Positions 3,917 through 34,413 of a stretch of DNA of 64,000 nucleotides are shown here, piece after piece. The DNA lies in the NCBI GenBank assembly GCA_001599295.1, contig BCGN01000008.1:1116001-1180000 (forward strand), written 5' to 3'. The DNA comes from Sporopachydermia quercuum. Lineage: Eukaryota. The position numbers were made by a program, and so were the translations under genes. The first letter of the stretch is position 1, and every line of letters begins with the position of its first letter. The notes beneath the pieces were generated by a model, which was given only the letters and a program-made list of their open reading frames with translations, had not been told where the DNA came from and ran no database searches.

Positions 3917-6900
3917 TTATGCAGTTAGTACAGGTGAATCGGTGATCACCAATGACTCCAAGTACTCCTTATTCAGGTCTCTTGCTCGTAATTCAAGTAT
4001 ATTCCTGATCTTTGCTTCATTCCACGTTATAAATTTCTTAGTAATCATTATATATGGATCGTCAAAAGCCTCATACTGGAAATTATCCTGTGAAATATCA
4101 ATAAGCAACTGATGAATCTTCCTCAAAGCTTCAATGCAATGGGCATCGACTTGATGGATCAAATTATAATCAGAACCAAGATTCACTGAAGGCGATATCG
4201 ATTGACTCAATAGTCTCGATGTTGAATTTGATATTTTTGCCGGAGATAACAGTTTGCTCTTCAGATCTACGGGAGACATATGAATAACACCTTTTTCACC
4301 TTTGGAACGTAGAACCAATGGTTCAGAAACAACTTCTTGGACGGTCAAGCTCATTAGAAGAAATCTGTATGCTAATTGCTTATAGTCCGTTTCTTTAGTG
4401 AAGGGGGTCTTTGATAGTTGTTCTAAGGTTTTTAGTAGGAAAGGATAACAAGCCGCGAAGACTTTTTGCCTAGAAGAAGACGTAGAAGTAAGTTTAATGC
4501 TAGGATTTATTGGAGTTTTAGGTATTCTAGCTGCGGGATTTGTTGTGGGAGTTGTGGATCCAGTGGTTGTAAAAAAAACAGTGTTTGAGGTGTTGATTTC
4601 TTCAATACCTTCACCTTCAAGAGAAGAATTTGTAGTACCAATACCAGAATTATGAACAATAGGTTCAATGGCGGTTACGTTATTTGTTGTTCCTATTGTT
4701 GTAATTTGATCAGCAATAGATACCTTCTCAGTATTAGAAGCGCCATTTCTTTCTTGGCTCTTGCTATCGTTATGACTATGATTTCTATAATTACCATTGT
4801 GAATATCCTTGTGATTCGATATATAATGATCATTTTCTCCGAGGTCTATAGTACTCTTATCATGCCTTGGAACTCGAACAGGCGTAGTAGGTCTAGAATT
4901 AATGATATTCCCGCCTTCATCATTGCTACTATCGCCATTATAGTTACTAGCGTATTGAGAATTAGTAACTGTCTTCTTGATAGTAATATTATCTTTTGTT
5001 GGACTTAAAACGTCTTTTCCACTTTCACCGTCATTATTATCACGTCCTGCACTCCTTCCATTGCATATATCTTGTAAACCTTCAGCAGTCTCGTTAAGCA
5101 TCCTTTCGTTCGACTCATCAAATCCAACAACTGTCAATATACTTATCACACCTCTCAATACTAACAACTCACTACGCATAACAACAGGAATTCTTTCTAC
5201 TATCATATAAATTTCCATCAAATCTCTGGTACATTGAAACAGAATCAAAGCCGCAACAATAATAGGGTGGAAGCCATTGCCTCCGTCGTATCCTTTCTTG
5301 AAAGCATAATCAGCTACTATACAGAACAGTTGAGATATTTCCTCGTGACAATTTTCTTTTCTAGTGTTGTAATCAAGTAGCGTGTAGAATAACAGTTTAC
5401 ATAGATATCTGAATAAATCTACATTGAATAGTTCTTGCTTATTAGTCACCAAATCGTAGAAGCAACATATTTGTTTTAGACGAAGTCTAGTTGGTAATAA
5501 TGAAGCCTTGTTGTCTATTGATAGCAAAGCATCAATTGAGCTGGTATCACTTTCAGCTTTTTCCACAGCTGCGTAGTTATTACCAGTGATAGTAATGAAA
5601 AATTGTTTAACGTCGCTGATGACTCTGGAGACTGGTAAATCTTTCAGGCGTAGTTTTAGCAATTTGGCATAAGCATCAAGTAACTGTCGATCCTGGGTGA
5701 ACGGAAGCCTTTGGTATACTAGCATTAGGCCTTCAAATGATACTTGATTAGCCCATATTATAAAAAGCTCATCAGTTAAACTTGAGAGAACCTTTGTCTG
5801 GATTCTGTTGTCTTTTGTTAAAATCAAATCAGCATTTCTACCATTGGAGGTACATTTGTTATTGGCCTCATTGAAAGAGCTATTGATATTCTTCAAAAAC
5901 TCCTTTGATACTGAATTAAACGCATTAGAAGCATTAATTGTTTCTTTGAAGAAGAAAAAATGAAGAAAAGATTCTAATCCTGATGTTTTCACCCTCTCAA
6001 ACAAAGACTTAATATACACATCATCATCCCTTATAGAAGGATGCAATTGGGATTTCAGTTCTTCTTTCAGTTTGAATTCGTCTTCCGCTATTTTCAATTG
6101 GGCTTCTCTTATTGAGTCGACTTTCTGTTCTGATTTTTTCACTTTCAGCAGCTTTGAATAGAATTCGTTATCTTTCTGTCGTCTATCTGCTGTGAGATAT
6201 AACTTGACTACTGATTTGGTAGGAGTGGGTGTTCGCGATTTAAGCAGTAACTCTGTCTTCGATGAATTTAAGGGAATAGCAGGTGTTCTGGTTGATATTC
6301 TAGGTGCGTTTATATAGTAATCCTCATCATTTGCTGTTGTTGATGACGACACTGATGCTGCTGTTGATGATGATGATGATGGCGCGAGATCCGCGTTTTT
6401 CTTGAGCGTCTTCTTTTTGGATACTCTACCAAACAGTTCATCTACTTCACTGATGTTCAAATCAGAGTCTGAGTCTGAGCCTGGGCCTGGGCCTGAAGCT
6501 GAATCTGAATCTGAATCTGAATCTAAATCCGAATTTATGTCTTGGCTGATAGCAGTTCGAAGATCCGAATCTCCTATTGAATTGAAACACGGTAGAACTG
6601 TCGATTTTTCTTCAGTAGCTGATGTAGACCTTTCATTGATGTGTAGTTCTCTTTCCTTTAATAGCGATTCAGTGGTTTCACTATACAACTCAAAGGATTG
6701 GATAGAATCTTCCTCGAAATCGGAAGAGAGAATCTCCTCTATAGCTGAACCAGGACTTGACGATAGAACAATTGTTTCTTGACATCTACTGCTGTCTTTA
6801 GATTGGCTTTTCGTTGTTGTTGATATCCTGGCGTATGTGTTAGAGGCATTAGTGGTTTCGCTGGACATATGAGACTTAGAATCAAAGTATTCGACATCGC

Positions 6901-7030
6901 TATCATCTGATGTTAAAATTTCAACGGTATCATTAATATTTAAACCGTTTGCCGAAGAGAATGCATTATTTGAGAAGCTCCTGCTGAAATTTGATTCTGT
7001 TCTGTCATGATGCATTATAGGTGTTTTCAT
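3917..7030 (-). CDS. Uncharacterised 1037-aa protein: acidic/Ser-rich N-terminus with SIM-like motifs, helical central domain, N/T/S-rich insert; tentatively Nse6/Kre29 (SLF2/CANIN)-like
   Basis: A 3.1 kb ATG-initiated ORF in AT-rich DNA is very unlikely by chance. The family guess rests on architecture only. Confidence 0.8.
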   Translation of the reverse strand: MKTPIMHHDRTESNFSRSFSNNAFSSANGLNINDTVEILTSDDSDVEYFDSKSHMSSETTNASNTYARISTTTKSQSKDSSRCQETIVLSSSPGSAIEEILSSDFEEDSIQSFELYSETTESLLKERELHINERSTSATEEKSTVLPCFNSIGDSDLRTAISQDINSDLDSDSDSDSASGPGPGSDSDSDLNISEVDELFGRVSKKKTLKKNADLAPSSSSSTAASVSSSTTANDEDYYINAPRISTRTPAIPLNSSKTELLLKSRTPTPTKSVVKLYLTADRRQKDNEFYSKLLKVKKSEQKVDSIREAQLKIAEDEFKLKEELKSQLHPSIRDDDVYIKSLFERVKTSGLESFLHFFFFKETINASNAFNSVSKEFLKNINSSFNEANNKCTSNGRNADLILTKDNRIQTKVLSSLTDELFIIWANQVSFEGLMLVYQRLPFTQDRQLLDAYAKLLKLRLKDLPVSRVISDVKQFFITITGNNYAAVEKAESDTSSIDALLSIDNKASLLPTRLRLKQICCFYDLVTNKQELFNVDLFRYLCKLLFYTLLDYNTRKENCHEEISQLFCIVADYAFKKGYDGGNGFHPIIVAALILFQCTRDLMEIYMIVERIPVVMRSELLVLRGVISILTVVGFDESNERMLNETAEGLQDICNGRSAGRDNNDGESGKDVLSPTKDNITIKKTVTNSQYASNYNGDSSNDEGGNIINSRPTTPVRVPRHDKSTIDLGENDHYISNHKDIHNGNYRNHSHNDSKSQERNGASNTEKVSIADQITTIGTTNNVTAIEPIVHNSGIGTTNSSLEGEGIEEINTSNTVFFTTTGSTTPTTNPAARIPKTPINPSIKLTSTSSSRQKVFAACYPFLLKTLEQLSKTPFTKETDYKQLAYRFLLMSLTVQEVVSEPLVLRSKGEKGVIHMSPVDLKSKLLSPAKISNSTSRLLSQSISPSVNLGSDYNLIHQVDAHCIEALRKIHQLLIDISQDNFQYEAFDDPYIMITKKFITWNEAKIRNILELRARDLNKEYLESLVITDSPVLTA
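6464..6530. repeat. Coding hexanucleotide microsatellites (GAGTCT, GGGCCT, GAATCT units) encoding Asp-Ser and Gly-Pro repeats
   Basis: gagtctgagtctgag, cctgggcctgggcct and gaatctgaatctgaatctgaatct are read directly from the sequence. Confidence 0.85.
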
Positions 7031-8206: not shown

Positions 8207-9286
8207 ATGAGTAAACCACAAGTTTTATTGATAGGAACAGGAGGTGTTGGTGTGATTGCAGCCCTTGGAATCGAAACAGGGGAAAAAGCAGAAGTCACCG
8301 CTGTTGTAAGAACACATTATGATCTTATTGTTAAAGAAGGGTATACTATTGAATCCTGCGATTATGGCGTTATCAAAAGCTGGAGACCGACAAATGGTAA
8401 GTACAATCGTTTCCTCTGTTGAATAGCCTTATCAGGACCTAATGGACCTTTCCTAACGTACCTTCTAGTTGCTTCATCTATTGATTCAGCAGTTGAACTA
8501 GTCAAGAAACCATTCGACTACATTATTGTTGCAACTAAATCATTACCTGATATAACTAAAACCGAAGAGTTGGTTGCACCTGCTGTAACAGAAGGTCATA
8601 CGACAATTGTGTTGTTTCAAAATGGTATTGATAATGAAAAGGCTTTAGTGGAAAAGTTTCCTAATAATATTGTCTTGTCAGGAGTATCGATGATTGGTTC
8701 GCACAACTTTGGTGGAAAGATTGAACAACATGAGCCTGATTCAATTATAATTGGACCTTACGATAATGATGCAATTCCTTTTGAAAAAAGGGAAGCCGCA
8801 GGCAAAGCATTCGTGGAGATTTACTCTAGTGGTAAAAATTCTGTGAAGTACGATGCTGATGTTAAAACTACAAGGTGGAGAAAGCTCGTGTATAATTCTT
8901 GTCTTAATACTATATGTGCGTTGGTTCAATTAGATGTTGGAAGGGTGGAACTTGGTGGCGGTCTAGAAACGCTAGTAAGGCCTGCGATGAACGAGATCGT
9001 AGCTATAGCAAATGCTGCGGGTGCTAGTCTGCAGGACGATATTGCTGACTTCATGATCCATAGTGACGACGGAATATACTATGCTCCTTCCATGTTAATT
9101 GATGTTCAAAAAGGAAATCCAATTGAATTAGAAGTTATCTTGGGTAATCCTCTACGAGAAGCTAAAGAGTTGGGTGTTCCTACCCCAGTCCTTTCAATAG
9201 TATATGATCTATTGAAATTAGTTCAATTCAGATTGAAGGAAGCTGCGGGTTACATTGAAGTTCCAAAGGAAAGACCTGTCAATTAA
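8207..9286 (+). CDS. 2-dehydropantoate 2-reductase family protein (ApbA/PanE-like); join(8207..8396,8469..9286), 335 aa
   Basis: Rossmann motif LLIGTGGVG; FDYIIVATK, LFQNGI, RWRKLVYN, PSMLIDV and ELEVILGNP. Splicing 8397..8468 fuses the two track ORFs in frame (...WRPTN-V-ASSIDSAVELVKKPFDY...). Confidence 0.92.
8397..8468 (+). other. Spliceosomal intron, 72 nt, phase 1
   Basis: Donor GTAAGT at 8397, branch TCCTAAC at 8451-8457, acceptor ttcTAG ending 8468; removal restores the reading frame. Confidence 0.9.
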
Positions 9287-9469: not shown

Positions 9470-9543
9470 TGGTCTCTAGCGGGATCGAACCGCTGATCCC
9501 CGCGTTATTAGCACGGTGCCTTAACCAACTGGGCCAAGAGACC
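9470..9543 (-). tRNA. tRNA-Ile, anticodon AAT, intronless
   Basis: Reverse complement GGTCTCTTGGCCCAGTTGGTTAAGGCACCGTGCTAATAACGCGGGGATCAGCGGTTCGATCCCGCTAGAGACCA folds into a cloverleaf: acceptor stem GGTCTCT/AGAGACC, A box TGGCCCAGTTGG, anticodon loop CTAATAA, B box GGTTCGATCCC. Confidence 0.98.
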
Positions 9544-10060
9544 TCTTCGAAGCCTGAAATAGGTCATAGTACATAAGATTGTTAATGCGTAAGAATATCC
9601 TTTTGTGCTATTTCATGATTAATCCGTTTGGTGCAATAAATTCATGAATATTTTCTTTTTATAATAGAAGAAGTTATTTACTGCATAATAAAAAATGACT
9701 TGCATCCTATTGTTTGGGCTAGTAGGTATTGTCTTAAGAAATAACCTTCAAGTCTAGAGCAATTTTGGTTATTTTTCAATTGGATATGTATGCATTAGAT
9801 TCTATGTGTTAAGGATTAAATTGAAAGAATCATTTGCTTTCATTATGAAAGATATTTATTTTTATATGAATAAAAAAATTAGAAAAAAAAATACATTTAG
9901 TCTTGAAAATATGAGGATAATCAAAGAAGTGCCAAGTAGATTTGTTCAGCATAGTTATATAGTAGGGTGGGCGTTCATAATGAGCCGTTTCTCTGTCAAA
10001 TGTAGCCTTATTTGTCAACACTTTTGTATATACATAGTTAGCTGTTTATAAACTTTTCTT

Positions 10061-10753
10061 TCAATTCCTCGAAGCCTGAAGATAAGATGTTATTTGGCCC
10101 GTTGCTAAGGGAATCAAAACCTCTTTTGTTCTTAAGTAAAACTCATGATATGTTGCATTAGGTTTTGTATTTGAAAGAAACTCCTCAGAAATTAGTGATC
10201 TCAGCATTGTTTCACTATCATTTAAACCAAAAAGAAACAGTTCTACAATCCATTTCAAATCTTTCTGTTGATCGAAAACTGTCCCTTGAATTGTCCTATA
10301 ACCTGTATTGAACTCATTGAGGTATTCTGTTAAACTGGTTTGCTTTTGTTGAATTTTACCTGATTCCAATCTTTTAGCAACATCACTATAACGAGATAAA
10401 ACTCTTGCATCAGCTTTAACCAGTTTTTTAACTATTCCTGGTACTAAATCCTCAAGTGTTGGCTCTTTTGATTCCAATTTTTTACTATGAATTATTTTAT
10501 CAAGAACACTGTATACCTCATCAAATATTGTAGGTGTTTTGGTGACTGGTTGCAAACCCTTGAGCATTTGAATAAACCACAATGTAAAACCTAACAGATC
10601 ATTGCAGTATCTACTTTTAACGGTATTTCTCCATTCTGTAATATAATACTGAACCGTTTCTTCTGACGTTTTATAAAATGGTCGTATAGCGGTGTATGGA
10701 GCTACAATTTTGCCCAATGGCCATTCTGCTTGTGGACAAGGGTAGATCCGCAT
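10061..10753 (-). CDS. Stand-alone retrotransposon Gag (Ty3/gypsy capsid-like) protein, ~230 aa
   Basis: PFYKTSEETVQYYITEW resembles the capsid N-lobe PxFxGxxxEDVxxW/F pattern. IQQKQTSLTEYLNEF resembles the major-homology-region QxxxxSVxEYxxEF pattern, and ELFLFGLN the FxxGL motif. First in-frame ATG is 10753 (the track starts at GTG 10783). Confidence 0.62.
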   Translation of the reverse strand: MRIYPCPQAEWPLGKIVAPYTAIRPFYKTSEETVQYYITEWRNTVKSRYCNDLLGFTLWFIQMLKGLQPVTKTPTIFDEVYSVLDKIIHSKKLESKEPTLEDLVPGIVKKLVKADARVLSRYSDVAKRLESGKIQQKQTSLTEYLNEFNTGYRTIQGTVFDQQKDLKWIVELFLFGLNDSETMLRSLISEEFLSNTKPNATYHEFYLRTKEVLIPLATGQITSYLQASRN

Positions 10754-11160
10754 TTGCTGGTGCAGTTTTTTACCATTTATCACCTCTACTTGAACTTAAA
10801 CATGCTACCTCCGTATTGCCGTATGATGATTGTTGTTTCTTATTTCATTCTTTTCAAGACTAGCAAATAGTATAGGTCAAGAAAAAAAAAGAACAATCAG
10901 AACCTCGGAATACAGATAACAGAGATTGATTTTGAGACTTGAATTATACGAAACTGAAATGAGCCTTGAAGTTATATTATGTTTATATAATCTAAAAAGG
11001 TACTTGTAACAGGAACTTACAATGGCTAATATTATATTGAATCACATGAATAGAAAGTCATAAACTACATGAAAGGGCAAGCAAAAAAAACATAATAAAT
11101 ATGCATAATTTAGTTAGCACTATACTGATGATTCATACTACAATTATGCTCAGTACTGGA

Positions 11161-13812
11161 TCATTCTTCGAAGATAAAACTTTCATTCTCATTCAGAGTA
11201 TGTGGTTGATGAAAATGATTAGCATAATATTCAAGATTTTCTGGTTCTTCCTCAGCATCAATTTCAGCTTGCGATTCATGTGGAAATAACGTTTCCAGAA
11301 TATTAGAAGTCTCATAAACATTTGGAAACACTGGTCTATGAGCAAACAAAGATGTAGATGGTCTTTTAGATGTCATTCGAAATTTGCGATTTCCCGTTTC
11401 CCCTACTTGAGCTTCCTTACTTATTTGATGTTCTAAAATTAAGCTCATATTTCGCTCCAAGGAAAGAAACAAGCTTGCCATCAAGAACGTCGACTCCCGC
11501 AGTGGGTATTTCAGTGGTGATGTATCTGATAACCAATACCAAGGGTTTTCTGAACTTAACATACCTCGAGTTCTGGTTCCTGACTCACAATGCTTTACTT
11601 CAGTCCAATCACCATAGTTATATCTTTTATCTGGATACCTTAGTACATCAATCATTAGTTTCCTTATGACGCCTAGAATTTCAATGTTTTCCCAGATTTC
11701 TTCGGAAACTAGTAAACTCTCAGGGTTCGTTTGCTGATCTTCAATAGAATGATTTTCACTTTCGATATGCGCTTCTTCATCAAGAATTTCAGAGGAGCCT
11801 GGTCTCAGAGTTGTGTCTTTCCCTTGCATATTCCCTTGCATATTCCCTTCAGCTTCATTTCCCTTATATCTATTACTACTATTTGCATAGTCTTCTTCTC
11901 CAATGGTATGAAAAGACAACCAGGATTTCCCTCTGTTAGCTTCCTTATTCGATTTATTTTTTCTTTTGACATCGGCAAGAATATTCTTAACAGGACGTAC
12001 ATATTCTAGGTCATCTGTTTCCAGAGATTCTACATCAGTACGATTCTGATCATCTTTATTTTCCGTTTCAGAGTCATTTTCATCAGCAGTTGAACGACCA
12101 ACCATTGCTTTGATAAGGCCAATTCTAACCGAGATGGAACGCGATACAGATAAGGCAAAGGCGACAAAAGAAGCCATCCAGGTAGATATTATTTCTGAAA
12201 ACTCATTAGCTACAGAGAACAATGAATCTCCCACACTTGAAATAAGAATTGTCATCAGTGGCACAGCTCCTAAAGCCCATGCACAAAAAAAAGGTCTACC
12301 GAAGTTTGAGTTTGGAGATAAATCACCATATCCAATAGTTAATAAGCATAAGAAGCAGAAATAGAAAGAGTTGAAGTAGTTCCAATGCTCAGCGTAATGG
12401 AACCAAAGAGCACCCATCATAAGAAAAAGTAGGAAAACAAACACAGTTAGAAACAATGACATACGTTTCTGGCGTAAAATAGACTCTTTTCTAAGAGCTC
12501 TCATTAGATTGAAACATTCCTCATCGGAAAGCGAGTATTTCTCTTTCTGCAGCTTTCTATACAACTTTTTCCTACGTTTTTCTAACCTATCCCAAAAGAA
12601 AGCAGGACCAGTAGTCACCAGGACTAAATTTCTAATCGTAGCGATGATTAACCCAAGAATCAGTACGCCGAACACAGCAAATACCAACGTAATGGCTTTA
12701 GATCCATATGAATTAGGTGCGACATCACCTAAACCTACAGTCAATACTGTAACAACGCAGAAATATATTGAGACGTTATATGGCGAATGAAGCTGTCTTG
12801 AGAATATAGCAGCAAAAACCCCCAGCCAGATAGCAAATAGGAATGTGAAAAAGATAAGGCCTCGTTGTGATTTATCCAGGTTATATTTGGCAGGATATTT
12901 TTTTCGATGGAAGCCAATTTGATTAACTGCTAGCACCATAAAACAGACAAAATAAAGGAAACATGCAATACAACCATAATAGTAAGAAGCCGATTGAGTA
13001 TAAATGCTATCTCCTGAAAAATACTTCACTTGATTCATGACCAAATCACCAAGCAAAAAGCCAATAGCAGTTATCCATGAGGCTATTGATACAGGTTGAG
13101 CTCTTCTATAAGTAACTCTCCCACTGAAATTCAGAAACAAGGCAACATTACCTATTAAGCCAAATAATAAGGAAAAAGCATTCAAGATTAACACCAATTT
13201 ACCATCATGAACAGCTTTATAAGTTCCTTTCATTTCTCTCCATGAGCCTGTCAGGGAAACAATATTGTTGAGGTTGGCCAAAGGTCCAACACAGGCTGCA
13301 ATGATAGGTAAATACGTAGCTAGTGAGAACCAGAAACTGCGAGATGTTAGTAATGATGATAACGATAGTGGTCAAAACAGTGCTAGTTAAAAAGAGACCA
13401 GCCACATTAAGATATTGTGAGTATTGTGAAACTTGTGAATAAATACTTACATGAATAGATCTTCACCAGGTGATACTTTCAATGAATTGTATAAATTGGT
13501 ATCTATTCGTAAAGCTGTCTTTGCTAATTCAGCAATTTCTGCTTCTTCATTGTGCTTGCTCCAACTCCTGATCGCACTGCAAGTACTTAAACGTGCTGAT
13601 GGAGATGATGTTGGGAGATTTTCTGAGGCTGTTGAGTCTGAGTTTTCGTTACTATTATCACTTATATTATTTTTCCCCTTGTCTGGAAACTTTTTTCCAC
13701 GGGTCAATCGTATTGACAATAAGTTTGGTGAATCATCGTTCGTCTGCGTAGTCGTCGCTCCACCATTTACTTTCTGCTTAGCAAATTTGAAACTGGGGTT
13801 TAATTTCCCCAT
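11161..13812 (-). CDS. TOK1: Outward-rectifying two-pore-domain K+ channel; complement(join(11161..13336,13451..13812)), 845 aa
   Basis: Two pore loops, TVLTVGLGD and CLLTIGYGD, and multiple TM segments. The spliced junction gives GEDLF-I-FWFSLATYLPIIAACVGPLAN, matching the Tok1 first TM region. Confidence 0.94.
13337..13450 (-). other. Spliceosomal intron in TOK1, 114 nt, phase 2
   Basis: Minus-strand donor GTAAGT at 13450, perfect branch TACTAAC (13352-13346), acceptor gCAG ending 13337; the frame joins the two track ORFs. Confidence 0.93.
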
Positions 13813-14256
13813 ACCTAGTTCCGTTCAAATACCTATTGTTGATCTGGTGTATAGGTATGCGACTATGAATAGAATAGGAACCTGTGCTATTAGTGCAGCC
13901 AATAGAATGTACTGTAAAGTAGTTAGTACAATGCTCAAAATAAAATTAATTAGTTAATAAGTATAATCCGTTCATAATAAAGTATAAGCTTCTATTATTT
14001 TCCGAAATCAATCAATTAGTGATCAAGCTGTTGTCTCTCTTTGCATTCTGTATAGTATGATTCAAGGTTTGATATTCAACTTGGCTCCTCAGCTGATTCT
14101 ACTGATAATGATCCTTCAGCTGCAAATTATGGGGTACTTGAACATCTCATACAGCTACTTCAGAGAAAAGTCTGATCACGCAAAAAGAACATAAAAAAAT
14201 CAATTGGTGATACCGATTCTTCTCTTCAACATATAGATGAAAGATCAATTTGCGTC

Positions 14257-25614: not shown

Positions 25615-26267
25615 ACTGAGATCAGAGAAAAGTACTATTGGTTTGAAATCAGTCAGTGGTTCAATTTGAAAGTAATTTAGTTGCGAGCGATAATCAGGTA
25701 AGTGAGTAAGTAGCTAGCTATCTACTGATCAATTTTCAAAAATTAATAAATGTAGTACGGTTATAGTTTAGTTGAACACTGCATGTCATTTCATCTTATT
25801 TATGTTAGCTATATCAAACGAGTATCAATCTTTCATATTTAAGAGTTCTTGGTCGTTCTGCTGTAACTTCATCTCTCAAACTACCCTAAGTAACTCATAA
25901 GCTACCATATTTTCTTTCCTGGCCCTTGGCATTGGCTTCGAATATATGACTTAAAAGAGTAGTTTGCCATGTTATCTGTCTGAAATTTACATTGTCTCGA
26001 TCGAAAAGAACCAAGCAAACTGCTACGAGAAAGAATAAATTATAAAGTGATATCTAAGGTTTCTTGCTTTGGGTTATTGGTAATCGATGATATATGATGA
26101 GTTACATATATATTTATCTATTTAATATTGCGTACCGATGATTGACCTAACTTACGAAAGAAGTACAAGTTTTAACATTTATTGTTGATATAAGGCCAAA
26201 AGAAGAGGACCACATCAGACAAGATGAATAAAGTTGAATAAACTGCCTCGATTGTTATCTTAGGAAA

Positions 26268-26307
26268 CTGAAAAAGGCTTCCTAATTCTGAAAAAGGCTT
26301 CCTAATT
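26268..26307. repeat. Perfect tandem duplication, 2 x 20 bp (ctgaaaaaggcttcctaatt)
   Basis: Read directly at 26268-26287 and 26288-26307. Confidence 0.95.
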
Positions 26308-29300
26308 CTTACCAAAGATATATCTATGTTGACTTCAGAAAGGGAATACACAATATTGACATTGAATTGTTAAAATCAGACCCTGATGAAACGAGGCTTC
26401 CCGTGATCTCCTAGAAAGAAAACAAGTAAGAAAAAAGTTCGCAGTCCAGGAGGAGATCAGTATTCTTCCATGTGATAGCGAATAAATGTTAAGGTGAAGA
26501 AAGCATGCGAATTTTTTTGATGGATTTTGATGGAGTCTGCATACATGTGAAACCTATTTCCAGAAGGTATAAGCTTAAAGTTAGGTTACCGTTTTAATCT
26601 AATTGAAAGCTTATATCCTGTAAGACTTGAGACGATCGAAGTCAAATAATAAAGCAATAAAACATTCGGGTTCGAATTCATATATGTTTTTTACTTAGAT
26701 TAATTCTTTAGTAACGCTCAAGTTATATGATTACTTTCTTTATTTCTCTTCATGTTCGATGGAGAATTGATACAATTGATATCATTACTTCAGCTCTAGT
26801 ACCTTAAAATTCAAGATAGAGTTGGAATGGCAATATTCTAAAATAGATGAGAAAGTTGTATTAGGTTGCCTTATTTGGTTTATAAAATTGTTATCGTCAA
26901 GCCCTTCGGTCTGATTAAGATTTGCCTTAAGGTTTTATATAGTCAAACGTTAATTGAATCAGGTTTTGTTGTAGAAATGCTTTTAATATATCGTAGCGAA
27001 GCTACCCCTAGTTCTTACATTCCGATTCCACGCGTTCCAACTCGGGAATCTTGAATGACTCTTGCATCGCCTAATTTACATAGCAAACAATATATAGTTA
27101 TTGCTCAGAATATCTTAGGACTCTTATTCTCTGATTCGGGTGCTTTCGCGGAACTGACAATACTATCTCAATAAATAAGGCGGTGTAAAGATAGCGCAAA
27201 AGTCACTATTAGTTGTTTCTGGTTGTATAACAAAGGCAGAGCAAGCTGAATAGATTTTTCTGGAACCTACCAAATATGCATTTCAATTTCGTTAGGATTA
27301 GCAATAAGCAAGTGAGACAACGCTTTTCTTTTGATTCGCCTTACCTCAATGATATTCGCATAAACTCGGGCAGGAAACAGCATGATTCTCCAACTTTAAA
27401 GTGATCTTTAAGATCAATTTCACATAGTGACAAGAGTACAATTAAGTTACCGACAGTTAGGTGAAAAATTGTTCCAAGCTTTAAGTTTGGCTTGATCTCT
27501 TTTTGGTTCATTTTGGGATCAAGAAGATTGATTCAAATTAAAAATTTGAAGCTAAATAATGCAATCTAAAGAGGAAGTAACTTTATTTTATTATTTTTGA
27601 GTGAAGAAACTTTAATGAATAGCACAGGTCAAAGAAATTGAACCGGTAATTGTAATAAATGATCTTTGGAGTCAAGATTTCGTTGCTATAAGATCAGTGA
27701 ATTTTTTAATGAAAGTCAGGCTTACAAGAAAGGTCAAGTAGCAACAGATATAATTAAGAAGTCACGGAAGGTCTATTGCTTTAGGTAATATATACGACAT
27801 TTGCAAAGCTGTTTCAAATGACATAGCTCTTATGCTTTTAGCGGGATAAAAGATGAAAAAGTGTAAAAGAAGTTTTATACAAACATAAAATTTGTGGGTT
27901 TATTATATTCATCATAATAGAATTTCTCTAAGACTGCAATCTACTTATGGATTCAAAATATTTGAAGAAGCTAGAGTTTGCTTGGGTTATTATGCAGGAA
28001 AGAATCGAATTTGAAGCATTTAAGCTCACATCGGATTCATTAACCAACTTCCTAGTCTTCCTCTAATGGCATTTCTAAGTTGTTCGAATGTAACTTCTTT
28101 GAATCTTATTTTTCCTACAGCTGTAAGCTGTAATTATAGAAAGATATATCAAAATCAATCAGCTCTAGAGTTCAAGAGTGGCTTAATATCTTAAAATGTA
28201 TGCTGAGTTGTTCTAATACGAGTTCCCAAAAAATCAATTTGTATTTGATCGATAAACAAATTATCTGGAAAAGTTCTTTAAGACTTATTATTACCTTAAT
28301 TTGCTAATATAATGAATAGAATAATATAAAGTGTGCACTCTGCTCAATGATATATTAATATAACATATTATATATGTNAAAGTATATATATTAACTATAT
28401 ATTTGAGTGAGAAAGCTATCTTTCATTCTCCTTTTAATGCTCCCTACCACAACCCGTTTTCTCAGATAGTTTGGCAGAAAGATTTAAGAAAATAAGAAAT
28501 GATAATTTTAAGATGTCTCCTTTAAAAATAAATCATAGATGTCTGAATATGAAAACAATAAGACAAGAAAAAGCCATAGAGGCCATGATGTAATATTACA
28601 ATGAACTGGTGAAAGAAAAATAAAATATTCACTATCAGCTTCTTGCCCAAAAAAATTCCTTACTTATCTAAAAAAATTTCACACGCTTGCTAGTTCTATA
28701 TAAATCGGAAATCTTTTAGTTGTTTATCAACAATTTTCTCTATTTTCACTATTAGGAACTTCACACTATTATTTTCTTTTTACCAATAAATCGTTATTCG
28801 AGTAAGCTTAAAAAAATTTGTTGTCGAAAAACATCGGCAAAGAATATAAGAGAACCATCAAAATTATAAACGCAAAACTGTAAAGATTAGAAACTTATTA
28901 GATGTACTATATATTAATAGGTTAAATCAGATTTTGGAGGACAGAGCTTACTACGATCACATTTATAATGTTGCATTATGATAATTAGGGGCTATTATAG
29001 TACAGTAGAATAACAATTTTATTTTGTAAGCAAGTATCTCCACACATAGAAATGGAACTGAAGTTCTTAAAAATTGTTTTGAGAGAAGAAACACGATTGT
29101 GTAAAGCTATGAAGTTTAGCTCTGCAACCTCACAATAATCTCCCTATTGGCTTATAATTGCTTTACTTAAACTCGTCAAAAAGAGCATTCTCATAGCCTT
29201 TTCGATAAGTTTCTACATCACTAGATTCATCAGCGGCTCAGGATAAAGATCGGAAAATCTAACTTGATCTGGCTGGCATTAAGGAGTTAAGTTCAAGCTA

Positions 29301-29637
29301 ACGACTCTTCATATTTTAAGCTTATGATTAATTATATTTATTCAGTTATGATTATATTGAACCAATGGGTAGGTAAAACCATTCGAACGAAAGAAAATCA
29401 AAAAGAAAAGCTATAGAATAAAGCATACCGCTTTCAAAGCTATAGTAATTACTTGCAAAATAATCGTGCTCATTAATCATAAAATTACTCCATAATAAAT
29501 TAGTTAGCTATTGACTGCTTTAACGAGTATCATCAATGAATTTCAGAAACTTTGAATGAATCGTGTTTTTGCAACTTCTTGCCCCAATCAGTCATGAAGT
29601 AAGAATAAATACAAAAGTAGATCATTGTTTAAACTTC

Positions 29638-29670
29638 CTCTCAGTAGACTCTTAGTAGACTCTCAGTAGA
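29638..29670. repeat. Tandem repeat, 3 x 11 bp (ctctYagtaga)
   Basis: ctctcagtaga / ctcttagtaga / ctctcagtaga. Confidence 0.9.
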
Positions 29671-32600
29671 AAGTTTTAAATCTAAAGTCTCTATTATATT
29701 CTTTTATCATACTCAGGAATGATAATATTTTGTTTTCTTTGAATGCCTGAATAATCACCAATCAGTCGAACAAAATATCAATTGTTGATTCGAAAATTAG
29801 AGTTTCTTAATAATTAGAGTTCAACTTTTTTATTTACCTAAAATTAATTTCCAATCTTAGAGTTCATGTTTATGCTTCTTTGATAGTAATTGAGTTTGGC
29901 CTTAATACTTTAACTTTGATTAGATCAGTAGGTTGGAAATGGAACAAATTCCAACCTCAGTTGAACATAATCTACTAAGGGAGAAAGCAAAGAATCTATA
30001 TCATCTATAAATATAGCATATTTTATGGAATGGAGGGAGAAAACTTGATTTATCATATTGTTTTTTAAAAATTTGTTTGAGCAGCAAAACAAGGACAGGA
30101 GTACAGAAAATTTTGACTGGACTTCATTATCGTTTGGATTTAACCTATCGAAGAAGTTCAATCATTCGAATAAAAATGAACAAAACTTTTGATTAAATTC
30201 AGTTTAAATTTATTGGTTTTTTATTGTAATATGGTTGTAGTAAATTATTCCATCTCGCAGCCTTTTCTTTTCTTTTCTTTTCGTTAGTCCCAATAGCTTA
30301 TAGTCAAGTATTATGCTGTATAATATCATACGCAGAACATATATCTATACTACACAGTTGCGGATATACTTCCGTCCAAATAAAAACGAAGTTTCTGCTT
30401 TCAAAATCTTGCATAGATGTGATTCAGTAAAAAAAACGCAGTTCATGGAACTGCTTCGAGGGGAAGACTCTTCAAATTACAAGAATTGCCGAGGCATTGA
30501 AGCTATACAAGTTTCATCACTATTATTAGTTATACATGAATAATAAGTAAATAAATGGTAAATAAGTAGTAAATAACAATATTTAGAAATTAATTGCAGA
30601 TTAGCAGTAGACATATACAGTCTACAGACATATACTGACTTTCTACTCCAGAGCCACCCCTTGCTGTGTCTTAACGTTTTTCTTATATTTACTTTTAGCA
30701 TTACTTCCTAACTCTCAGACGGCAATTATTACACTTTATATCCTAATGCATTGTAACCAGTGTAAACCTTGGTGCGCTATGTCTTAGGTTCTTCTTTCTG
30801 GTGGCTTCTGGCTTAAATTAGGCACAGGTCTAAGTTGCAAATAACAACAATCGTTGCAGCACTCTAGCTGGCAGAAGAGCTGAAACTTCAAATGACTTTT
30901 TCTACAAACAGTAGTTATGAAAGGTTTATTACAACTAGTAATTATGAATCTATCCTAATATTACAACAGAGCAAATGACAACTTGAACATAAAACGGGAT
31001 CTCTTATTAGTGAAATACTTCAAAGCATTATCAGTGTCAAGCAAAAAATCTGATAAGATTGTGTTAACAAGTTAAAAGTAAATATTTTTCAAAAATAGCC
31101 TTTTCCTGGTTAAAAAATCTCAAATCAACAGGGGAAAAAAGGAGGAAAAGGAAATGGATTGAAAGTTTTTCTTCTAACTGAATACCTAAACTAAAAAGTT
31201 ATAGTGGAAAACATATCTATGATATTTTTTATTTGCTTCGGCTATATATCGTATCAAGTTTTTCGTTAAGTGTTTTCAAGGGGAAAAAGAATCAATAGCA
31301 GAAGAAGGATTGTTTACTAAAGGACATCCATCATCTTTTGACTATTCTAAGTCATGAGCCACAGTATATCGGTTGTTCCTAGTCACATTCTAGTAAACTA
31401 TATCCCTGAAAAAGTGTAGACTCATTAGTTTTTGGGTCACAATTAAATAACTTGCTTTATTAAGATTTTCGTAGAGACAAATGGAAATACTCTCATTAAT
31501 AAAAGTTGGAATTGGCTATGAAGTTGTAGAAACCTAGTTCCATTTCATAGAAGTTTATTGCCTAAGCGAAATAAACAGTGTTCACTCTTTCTTCAAGCTA
31601 CCTATGAACTTCTAAAGTGCCAACTGTGTTGATTTTTTTAAGTATGACTCTCGTGAGCCAGAGAAGTACTCCCGGCAAAATTAGCTAGTGAAATAATAGA
31701 AAATGAACTACAAACTACAAAAGAAGGTTACCAAAAGCATCCGCAACAACTTGCCTAGATTATTATAAATATGAATTGTTCTATGATAAAGCCCTGTATT
31801 TTGAAAATGAAAGAAGTTGATCAGAACGTCAAATTCGCTTTATCATTAATAGAATGGGAAAACAAATTTGTGTAGTCACGCCTGTAGAGATCCCTGTTTC
31901 CGGTGTTCTTAAGAAACCTGATTATTTTAACTCTCAGGGAAAAAGGAAATAATGAAAATAACCCAATGAATTAACAAAAGTCCGCCAAATAATATTTGAA
32001 GTTATACATTGATGAAAAAAGTTTCGTTTCATTAAATAAAAGTAGATGATAGATTCATACCTTCCTTTTGCGTGATGGCCACCACATCATCCTAGGATGT
32101 TCATACTTGCTACTGGTCATTAGTTTGAGTTATCAGTTTGATTGGGAAGTCAAATAAAAGTCGATGACTGTTGTACCTGAAATGACTAGTGAACAGAAAC
32201 TTAAACTTAATATCTAGTTTATTATTCGGCCCTTTAAGATTCTCTTACAATCTTTTGTTGTTTCTTTTATCGAGTCATAACTTAGAACACAGAAAATTTG
32301 ACTAAAGACTCAAACCAATTGAAATAAATCAATAGACTGGTTTTGACTTTACTATAAGATGCAAACCAATCGAAGATTAAGATGAAGTACGAAGATGTTA
32401 GTGAAGAATTCTTGATTTGGAGTTAGGTTATTTAGAGACATATATTTTTTGTCCTAATAAATGAAACCTTGATTATCATTATAGGTATTTATATGAGTGC
32501 AATCCCACCTTGAACAGAACCTTGCTCCATATTCTTCTCTTCTTGCTATTTATCATCTTTTCTCTTCTAACATTGCGTTGCATATACGCTCAATCATACC

Positions 32601-33567
32601 CATTAAGAGATCCGATGCTTTTCCCTACTTTTACTGGAAATTTGAATCTCCAGCTGAATGAATAATCCAGACAAGTAACTTACTAACCGTAATTTTCATC
32701 TCACTCAGTAAGCTTTCTATTTTTAGTTGATATTTTCTATTCAACTATAAACTAAGTTTAAATAACAAGCGAAATAGAGTTAAAAAAGACTAAAAAGAAA
32801 TTTCCTTATCCAATTATTTTCTCTTGAACTCTAAAGAGATCAGATCAAGTTTATTTTTACAAGAATTTAAAGTTCGTGATGCTTTTAGTTCATGTTTATA
32901 GTGGCCATTTGTCATTGTTGGAGAGTCAATCGTATCAAAGATATCACATTCTAATCATACAGCTAGCTAGTTAAATAATTATATACTGGAACATACCAAG
33001 TTAGTCCATAAATCATTGTCTATCTATTTCTATTTTCTATTGTCTTTCTTCGCGGGTATTTTTCTATTCTTTCAGATTCTTTTCGATAATAAGTTTTCCA
33101 TCTTGAAAAGCATCTTTTTTTCTTCTTTCCTTCTCTTTCTTTTTAACATTTTTCTGTCCATATATTCTTTGTTAAGGACAATCACCACTTCCTTAAGTTA
33201 AACACGAAGTCAAAGCCAATACGAAAATATCAAGGAATATTAAACGCGTTTTAGAATTGTTATTACAAGAGATTTAATAAACATGTGCATTAAAATCGAC
33301 GTTATTATGTCAGCACAACAGTAACATAATTAGAAGTTGAAACTAGTAATCAATCATCTACAGTATAGCAGGTTTCTTCCAAGTTTTCTAGCAACCCGGA
33401 AAACGAAGAGGATTATATTACTATACAACTATATGCACATTCGCACACCAAGTTATGAACTCACAAGTGAAACCAATCACTACTATGTATTGTGAAACTC
33501 TTGTCATCAATGTTTTGAATAGTCAATAATTACGGTGCTATTAGATCAGAATTAACTACCTTTTGCA

Positions 33568-34413
33568 ATGAATTCTGGGCCAAAGAAGGCGTGCTATAAA
33601 TGTGGAGATCTTGGCCATTTGGCGAATGAGTGTATATATTCTGAACGATTATGTTACAATTGCAAACAACCAGGTCATGAATCAACCAATTGTCCATTTC
33701 CTAGAACAACATCAACTAAACAATGTTATTACTGTCAGTCAATAGGACACGTTCAAAGTGAATGCCCTAAATACCGAAGTGAAAGATTGATAGATTATAT
33801 GCAAATTCCAAATAACTCAAGTAACTCGTTTATTCATGGTAATTATCCTCAAATTTCTTATACAGCTCATCTACCAATAACCGATCTACAAACATCAGCA
33901 TTACCACATTCTACCAGCATACCAAGTTATCACCTTCATTCTCATCCGAGTCATCCTCACCAGTTGTTACTACCAACATCGCGTCCTCCTTCAGAACAAA
34001 TGCCTCTTATACCCACTTATGCACAATACTACTCTGATAACTCAAATTCATATTATATACAGAATCCAGAAATTCACATTCCAACAACAAGCTATAAAAC
34101 TCAATGTTATAACTGTGGTAATTATTCACACATGGCTACTGACTGCCCTCAAGTGTTACTGAATTTAACGCCAGGGTGTACCAACCCAGGGAATCCTAAT
34201 ACTACGGGATATGCACAAATTGTTTGTTATAGATGTGGAGCACCAAACCATCTAGCAAAAGAGTGTCCCCACAATTCAGACAGGTGCTACTCGTGCGGTG
34301 AAGCAGGTCATCTAGCAAAAGATTGCCCTTCAATAGAAAAGGAAAAAACATGCTATCGCTGTGGGGAAAAAGGTCATATAAGTAAGGATTGTCCCTCGGC
34401 GACTGTATTATAA
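33568..34413 (+). CDS. GIS2: CNBP/Gis2-like RNA-binding protein with seven CCHC zinc knuckles and a long low-complexity linker
   Basis: Seven CX2CX4HX4C units. The opening KACYKCGDLGHLANEC..ERLCYNCKQPGHESTNCP.PRT..KQCY is Gis2-like. Confidence 0.85.
   Translation: MNSGPKKACYKCGDLGHLANECIYSERLCYNCKQPGHESTNCPFPRTTSTKQCYYCQSIGHVQSECPKYRSERLIDYMQIPNNSSNSFIHGNYPQISYTAHLPITDLQTSALPHSTSIPSYHLHSHPSHPHQLLLPTSRPPSEQMPLIPTYAQYYSDNSNSYYIQNPEIHIPTTSYKTQCYNCGNYSHMATDCPQVLLNLTPGCTNPGNPNTTGYAQIVCYRCGAPNHLAKECPHNSDRCYSCGEAGHLAKDCPSIEKEKTCYRCGEKGHISKDCPSATVL

Follow-up and report, generated by a model that had tools for sequence, protein, structure and literature searches.

A 64,000-nucleotide stretch of the Sporopachydermia quercuum genome (GenBank assembly GCA_001599295.1, contig BCGN01000008.1, positions 1,116,001 to 1,180,000 of the forward strand; hereafter the window) carries on its minus strand an intact, solitary open reading frame (ORF) of 230 codons that is coding sequence, or was so until very recently. 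Its sequence bears a weak but family-specific resemblance to the capsid part of retrotransposon Gag, from which it probably derives.

The frame (10061-10753; all positions are those of the window) runs from an ATG at 10753 to a TGA at 10063-10061 and extends in phase upstream of the ATG to 10795, giving 244 open codons before a TAA at 10798-10796 closes it. An earlier note, made by a model from the letters of this DNA, had described an intact frame of about 230 codons, which stood, with an upper limit of 10783, which proved to be an in-frame GTG, the first ATG being that at 10753. Under the base composition of the window (stop probability per codon, p = 0.069), 244 open codons have a probability of 2.6e-8, and by chance the six frames of the window should hold 2.3e-4 of them. 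The ORF ranks 17th in length among the window's 125 open frames of at least 70 codons, and all but one of the 16 that exceed it (15) have Pfam families. Scored with a codon log-likelihood built from 14 further genes in the window, the ORF gave 0.199 bits/codon in frame, within the range of those host genes (0.116 to 0.312), versus 0.008 and 0.045 in the two off-frames of the coding strand and 0.152 and 0.124 in two antisense frames. The ORF is called coding because its open length is beyond chance and its codon score is both host-like and frame-specific. Reassignment of CTG was checked on a GUT2-like gene, in which three CTG codons, compared with a solved homologue, fell on S, on an unalignable stretch and on L; neither the openness of the ORF nor its Pfam match depends on how CTG is decoded.

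The encoded protein (26.7 kDa; isoelectric point, 8.9) is all-helical by prediction. An N-lobe-like PFYKTSEETVQYYITEW, a QQKQTSLTEYLNEF like the major homology region (residues 135-148) and LFLFGLN (residues 172-178) follow one another in the order that the earlier note had given, the first of them at residues 25-41. In the order usual for the Gag profile consensus, the protein also carries F..W near its N-terminus, L-x-G-x-x-x-W, Q...S-x-x-E-Y...F and F-x-G-L. The frame had also been said to stop cleanly without a CCHC nucleocapsid (NC) knuckle, and the residue count agrees: the protein holds 2 Cys (residues 6 and 50) and 2 His (89 and 203) in total, so that it has no such knuckle, and C-x2-C-x4-H-x4-C was not found in it.

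Searched against Pfam, the protein matched one family at E ≤ 10, Retrotrans_gag (PF03732; E 0.013, 16.2 bits), over the segment listed in Table 1. The match persisted under translation tables 12 and 26 (CTG = Ser and CTG = Ala) and in two N-terminally truncated forms (E 0.0038 to 0.01), the best-scoring variant reaching 17.9 bits (E 0.0038). The same family was matched by none of the other window frames scanned (0 of 122 open frames of at least 70 aa, 0 of 21 fragments of the flanks and 0 of 88 from a gene desert described below); in this control, 123 of the 125 open frames of at least 70 aa were scanned together and the two longer than 1500 aa separately. Language-model neighbours (ESM Atlas) of the whole protein scored 0.92 at best, and 10 of 30 matches were Retrotrans_gag clusters. 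For residues 1-125, which lie outside the Pfam match, the matches listed (scores, 0.82 to 0.88) included DUF4939, DUF7041, Retrotrans_gag, DUF7746, DUF1759 and Ty3_capsid. The identification as Gag made in the earlier note thus holds insofar as retrotransposon Gag is the sole family-level resemblance, and falls short insofar as the score lies under the Pfam cut-off. From this resemblance we infer that the protein is likely to take the two-lobed capsid (CA) fold.

No other part of a retrotransposon was recognised around the ORF. Retroelement domains were matched by 0 of 21 open fragments of at least 25 aa in the two flanks (E ≤ 1) and were absent elsewhere in the window from the Pfam scans of open frames and the gene desert. 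Aligned with each other, the flanks scored 28 versus 23.1 ± 2.9 for shuffled sequences, of which 8 of 200 reached 28; with flanks no more alike than shuffles, no pair of long terminal repeats (LTRs) was found, and no repeats of at least 14 nt occurred beyond chance level. A primer-binding site, sought on the minus strand at 10754-11160 with an initiator-tRNA motif and up to 3 mismatches, gave no match. The flank Pfam, shuffle and motif scans all bear out the earlier note, which had found no protease or reverse transcriptase motif, LTR pair or primer-binding site. Gaps put at about 500 bp to the tRNA gene and about 400 bp to TOK1 measured 517 bp (ORF stop to the 5' end of the tRNA-Ile gene downstream) and 407 bp (stop of the TOK1-like gene to the ORF ATG), the former being the whole downstream interval for any pol. 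A short LTR read by eye in the upstream gap was dropped, as its TGTT...ACAACA ends stood alone and unsupported.

A tblastn search of the ORF against the window returned the ORF itself only. Copy number in the genome was assessed from sequencing data, the ORF stretch being present in three DNA runs (one organism, two studies) and in no RNA run among the five listed; of the three, the assemblies of two, X1 and X2, were compared by aligning records to the stretch at 80% likeness or more. In both assemblies the ORF lay inside one contig of 18,846 nt with 0 differences, and the depth over it was that of this single contig (33.1 in X1, 104.3 in X2). Records matching the stretch numbered 10 of 5,274 in X1 and 10 of 2,918 in X2; among the matches listed (16 of the 20), and for all of the excess depth, the location was the tRNA or the two main contigs. 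The assembly contigs broke only at the multi-copy tRNA, and neither X1 nor X2 contained a second copy of the ORF at 80% identity or above. The ORF is single-copy within the genome, and this implies no fixation between strains, as X1 and X2 may be the window's own sources. Near-identical copies inside complete elements, which the earlier note had named as telling against its reading, were not found at this level in either assembly, and the ORF is therefore no piece recently shed by a live family. Scans of metagenomes with the ORF gave 106 pattern matches and 0 relatives, and those of viral contigs gave 3 matches and 0 relatives; a metagenome scan for synteny with the TOK1-like neighbour gave one uninformative contig of 1,949 nt (31% identity over residues 534-605).

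Taken jointly, identity as a Gag remnant and the solitary state seem to us a reasonably good bet. In the history that we propose, a Ty3/gypsy-type LTR retrotransposon would have inserted upstream of tRNA-Ile, in the region associated with Pol III, and then lost its NC knuckle, pol and recognisable LTRs, leaving the CA part of gag. The ORF stands upstream of the window's only tRNA gene, within the zone where Ty elements of budding yeasts are described to accumulate, Ty3 integrating within 1-4 nt of where Pol III transcription begins and Ty1 over a range of up to about 1 kb upstream of Pol III genes (PMC5911963). Of the Ty3-like, tRNA-targeted insertion suggested earlier, the proximity to tRNA-Ile holds and the spacing, 517 bp instead of 1-4 nt, does not; the distance fits the wider Ty1-type range, or a rearrangement afterwards. 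In a neutral simulation with substitutions only, a 244-codon frame was still open with a probability of 0.61 at 1% divergence, 0.36 at 2%, 0.10 at 5% and 0.011 at 10%. With every other part of the presumed element lost or no longer recognisable, and no relative of at least 80% identity found, the balance leans towards a frame with more than a few per cent of divergence behind it, and so towards selection. Given a Gag identity, we put selection and youth at about even odds; that the ORF is Gag-derived and has been kept open by selection rather than youth is, overall, somewhat doubtful.

Several results weigh against a Gag-derived gene retained by its host. The Retrotrans_gag scores (16-18 bits) lie below the curated gathering cut-off of 24.1 bits, and half of the profile is covered (positions 46-96 of 97 at the widest). 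Unrelated families appeared at like E values in about 105 non-genic frames (DUF2975, 0.0053; Peptidase_S68, 0.0096) and among the 88 gene-desert fragments (Poly_export, 0.008); a match to one family or another at an E value of about 0.01 is what noise ordinarily gives, and it is therefore the identity of the family alone that carries weight. This identity is not fully independent, because the ORF was picked for its Gag-like look. All ESM Atlas scores of the N-terminal half were below 0.9, which makes them a lead only, and the whole protein shared 100-119 of 256 features with its neighbours and the N-terminal half 59-101, versus 170 typical within a family. An exhaustive phmmer search matched 0 of 1,835,955,588 representative proteins at E ≤ 0.001, and word-index searches yielded 181 candidates near the length of the ORF (0 at E ≤ 0.01), 783 at longer lengths (0 at E ≤ 1) and 17 with residues 95-200 (0 at E ≤ 10). 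The protein collection contains 0 of 15 window proteins read in the standard code and 0 of 5 re-read under tables 12 and 26; the proteome of this genome is absent from it, and the empty searches therefore say little on close relatives. When the PDB was searched by sequence, with the full-length protein and with each half, no chain of Gag, Arc or Ty3 came up at E ≤ 10, the rows returned being at chance level (E 0.6 to 1.3). AlphaFold2, run without an alignment, produced all-helical, unreliable models (predicted local distance difference test [pLDDT], 39.9 for the full length and 45.3 for residues 122-230), which are unusable because there were no relatives to align. With the pLDDT 39.9 model as query, which makes any matches meaningless, Foldseek returned nothing at E ≤ 0.001 from PDB and BFVD; homodimer prediction, at a score of 0.00 versus a mark of 0.32, gave no verdict either way. 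Around the gene, three ATGs in the 95 nt before the start and a C, not A, at position -3 count against an optimised mRNA leader, the ORF lies away from the Pol III start, at which a Ty3-type insertion would be expected, and the 407-bp upstream gap may hold a single degenerate LTR.

The protein might be an orphan unrelated to Gag, a fast-evolving or de novo helical sequence rich in K, L, T and E whose likeness to the Gag profile is due to chance. A match under the gathering cut-off, chance matches at like E in 3 of about 193 meaningless frames, language-model scores of at most 0.92 with few shared features, and no sequence homologue, Gag included, at E ≤ 0.001 would all be expected of such a gene, and the window has other clear genes without a Pfam family (a 1037-aa ORF at 3917-7030 and a 168-aa ORF at 13451-13957). 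Yet the sole family matched is the one predicted beforehand, for which the per-model chance is 0.013/24,736 models, or about 5e-7, and the match is stable to a change of code and to truncation; the N-terminal half, outside the Pfam match, falls independently among Gag-type clusters, and the ORF adjoins the window's only tRNA gene. We consider an orphan gene unlikely. Far less probable again is that the ORF is not a gene at all and stands open by chance in intergenic DNA rich in AT, a reading to which the empty homologue searches lend themselves, since the 2.3e-4 such frames expected in the window and the frame-specific, host-like codon score both speak against it.

A functionless young relic, that is, a Gag-derived and recently stranded fragment of an otherwise vanished family, open by youth, is a serious if less than likely alternative. 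It deserves consideration because LTRs and pol may have been deleted instead of decayed, with sister copies lost by LTR recombination. Budding yeasts often lose the internal parts of every other copy through LTR-LTR recombination, so that a lone gag fragment need not be old. At low divergence an open frame remains likely (0.61 at 1%, 0.36 at 2%), the three upstream ATGs and the weak start context suit a relic, and the searches found no homologues or orthologues that would show conservation; the DRT2 locus of Saccharomyces cerevisiae, too, is described as having started as a relic (PMC10951436). Young relics, on the other hand, usually retain recognisable neighbours, whereas no LTR pair, primer-binding site, NC or pol remnant was found here; the assemblies contain no other sequence of at least 80% identity, and the codon usage cannot be told from that of host genes.

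Among known systems, the ORF may be compared with the Ty3 Gag3 capsid of S. cerevisiae (Metaviridae), in which, as described, CA p24 comprises aa 1-207 and p27 aa 1-233 of a full Gag3 of 290 aa, and the double CA fold consists of an N-terminal four-helix and a C-terminal five-helix lobe (PMC6525542). At 230 aa the ORF product is close in size to p24 (207) and p27 (233), and it is like this capsid in its predicted all-helical make-up (low-confidence models), its sub-threshold Retrotrans_gag match, its Ty3_capsid-bearing neighbours and its place near a tRNA gene. Unlike a Ty3 element, the locus has no NC zinc knuckle, pol, LTRs or primer-binding site and stands 517 bp from the tRNA gene instead of 1-4 nt (PMC5911963), and unlike the Ty3 capsid the protein has no pairwise similarity to any solved Gag, Arc or Ty3 chain at E ≤ 10. 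As a precedent, DRT2 of S. cerevisiae comes nearest, a frame derived from gag that has tRNA genes on either side, restricts Ty1' and, like Ty1 p22, acts by capsid-capsid interference with particle assembly (PMC10951436). Both loci hold a frame that comes from gag, probably so in the case of the ORF, beside tRNA genes and without the rest of the element; DRT2 differs in the recognisable solo-LTR fragments that border it, none being recognisable at the ORF, and in its demonstrated transcription and restriction (PMC10951436). DRT2 and p22/p18 are, moreover, of the Ty1/copia lineage and are presented as containing the C-terminal domain of CA only, whereas the ORF appears to be of Ty3/gypsy type with both lobes.

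The animal genes Arc/dArc, RTL/PEG10 and RTL8 are likewise capsid-only or capsid-first genes of Ty3/gypsy lineage at single host loci, with the difference that they have conserved orthologues, solved folds and demonstrated expression; RTL8 is reported to antagonise PEG10 particles (PMC11684626). In fungi, a co-option survey (Wang and Han 2021) describes three gag co-options, Crtg12-14, from Ty1/Copia and Bel-Pao (PMC8321522). On the origin proposed for the ORF, these resemble it as single-copy fungal genes from LTR-retrotransposon gag, and differ in not being Ty3/Gypsy and in being conserved above the family level in Dothideomycetes and Tremellomycetes (PMC8321522). The main text of the survey does not contain the string 'Saccharomyc' and gives no Ty3/Gypsy fungal event (PMC8321522), and our literature searches found no report of Ty3/gypsy-type gag co-option in a budding yeast.

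For the function of a retained capsid gene, 'domesticated restriction factor' is put forward as a hypothesis. A CA-only protein, without NC, would be unable to package RNA and, if expressed, would most likely make CA-CA contacts with the Gag of related elements and so poison particle assembly. We infer this step purely from the analogous interference by Ty1 p22, DRT2 and RTL8, and overall a role of the product in restricting retrotransposons is improbable enough to be offered as a suggestion. Spelled out, the suggestion is of a budding-yeast host gene for an NC-less, both-lobe Ty3/gypsy CA that would act as a trans-dominant inhibitor of Ty3-like assembly, possibly also from an internal start at Met63, as Ty1 p22 would suggest by analogy; we give this version, too, an outside chance.

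Animals offer well-established cases of host genes that derive from Gag (Arc, RTL/PEG10, Fv1), and to our knowledge those of yeasts come only from the Ty1/copia lineage (p22, DRT2). If the proposed origin and role are true, the ORF would be, within the literature searched, the first report from fungi of a co-opted gag of the Ty3/gypsy lineage. Yeasts would then have evolved restriction by Gag twice and independently, once as Ty1 p22/DRT2 and once here; control of transposons by capsids would be shown to evolve convergently, and the transition from capsid protein to inhibitor could be studied in a small, tractable system. An intact, single-copy, Ty3-type, capsid-only yeast gene would be useful, if real, because the surveyed fungal co-options include none from Ty3/Gypsy. 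We regard the ORF as a plausible candidate, of value as a lead.

The features of the ORF and its surroundings are collected in Table 1. The decanucleotide past the stop, TATGTATATA, and the T9 tract upstream were both found where the earlier note had placed them, and the former agrees with the yeast type of 3'-end efficiency element. Farther upstream, TATATAAA is possibly a TATA element, or else belongs to the TOK1-like gene, at its 3' end. Of the three upstream ATGs, that at 10776 opens a 24-codon frame that runs across the ATG of the ORF. Rfam gave no further matches besides tRNA-Ile in the whole window.

Table 1. Coordinates of the Gag-like ORF and of features around it in the window
Feature	Position	Strand	Evidence
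tRNA-Ile (anticodon AAT), same strand as ORF, multi-copy in genome	9470..9543	-	Rfam
TATGTATATA, 25-34 nt past ORF stop	10027..10036	-	Sequence match
Intact ORF, 230 codons + TGA stop	10061..10753	-	Reading frame, codon score
Retrotrans_gag-matched segment, residues 129-178, profile 49-96 of 97; includes QQKQTSLTEYLNEF and LFLFGLN	10220..10369	-	Pfam
PFYKTSEETVQYYITEW, residues 25-41, within N-terminal half	10631..10681	-	Motif position in ORF
Upstream open extension of ORF, without ATG; in-frame GTG at 10783-10781	10754..10795	-	Frame analysis
Three out-of-frame upstream ATGs (10848, 10803, 10776; frames of 2, 5 and 24 codons)	10774..10848	-	Frame analysis
T9 run (poly dA:dT), 129 nt upstream of ORF ATG	10882..10890	-	Sequence
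TATATAAA, 229 nt upstream of ORF ATG, candidate TATA element	10982..10989	-	Sequence
TOK1-like two-pore K+ channel gene, upstream neighbour of ORF	11161..13233	-	Two Ion_trans_2 stretches (Pfam)

A 15-nt direct repeat (14 of 15 identical) occurs at 9544-9558, directly against the tRNA on its 5' side, and again at 10066-10080, in the last codons of the ORF. The copies lie 522 bp apart, a curious placement; a target-site duplication was rejected, because the repeat is no better than chance (blastn E 4). Loose contig ends at 9543-9547 in runs X1 and X2 pointed to at least 3 other tRNA-Ile copies with different upstream flanks. The upstream flank of another tRNA-Ile copy starts with TGTTG right beside the tRNA, as LTR termini usually do, which hints that LTR elements adjoin tRNA-Ile genes in this organism.

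Elsewhere in the window, about 7.9 kb at 25615-33555 contained no open frame of at least 80 codons (GC, 0.27 to 0.38 per 500 bp; one N at 28378). The region had no long repeats and two tiny tandem arrays, and 0 of 88 fragments of at least 35 aa matched a retroelement family; such a gene desert, unusual in a compact genome, could be a centromere-like or other non-coding region. No Pfam family was matched at E ≤ 1e-5 by the 168-aa ORF at 13451-13957 (plus strand), nor by the 1037-aa ORF at 3917-7030 (minus strand), which had none at E ≤ 0.1 either. Seven CCHC zinc knuckles (Pfam zf-CCHC, E 5e-44) were recognised in the 281-aa product of the gene at 33568-34413 (plus strand), which resembles cellular proteins of the GIS2/CNBP type and is unrelated to the Gag-like ORF. 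A ketopantoate-reductase-like gene at 8207-9286 (plus strand; ApbA + ApbA_C) is seemingly split by a stop, and a 72-nt intron at 8397-8468 (GTAAGT, TCCTAAC branch site, TAG) restores its frame.

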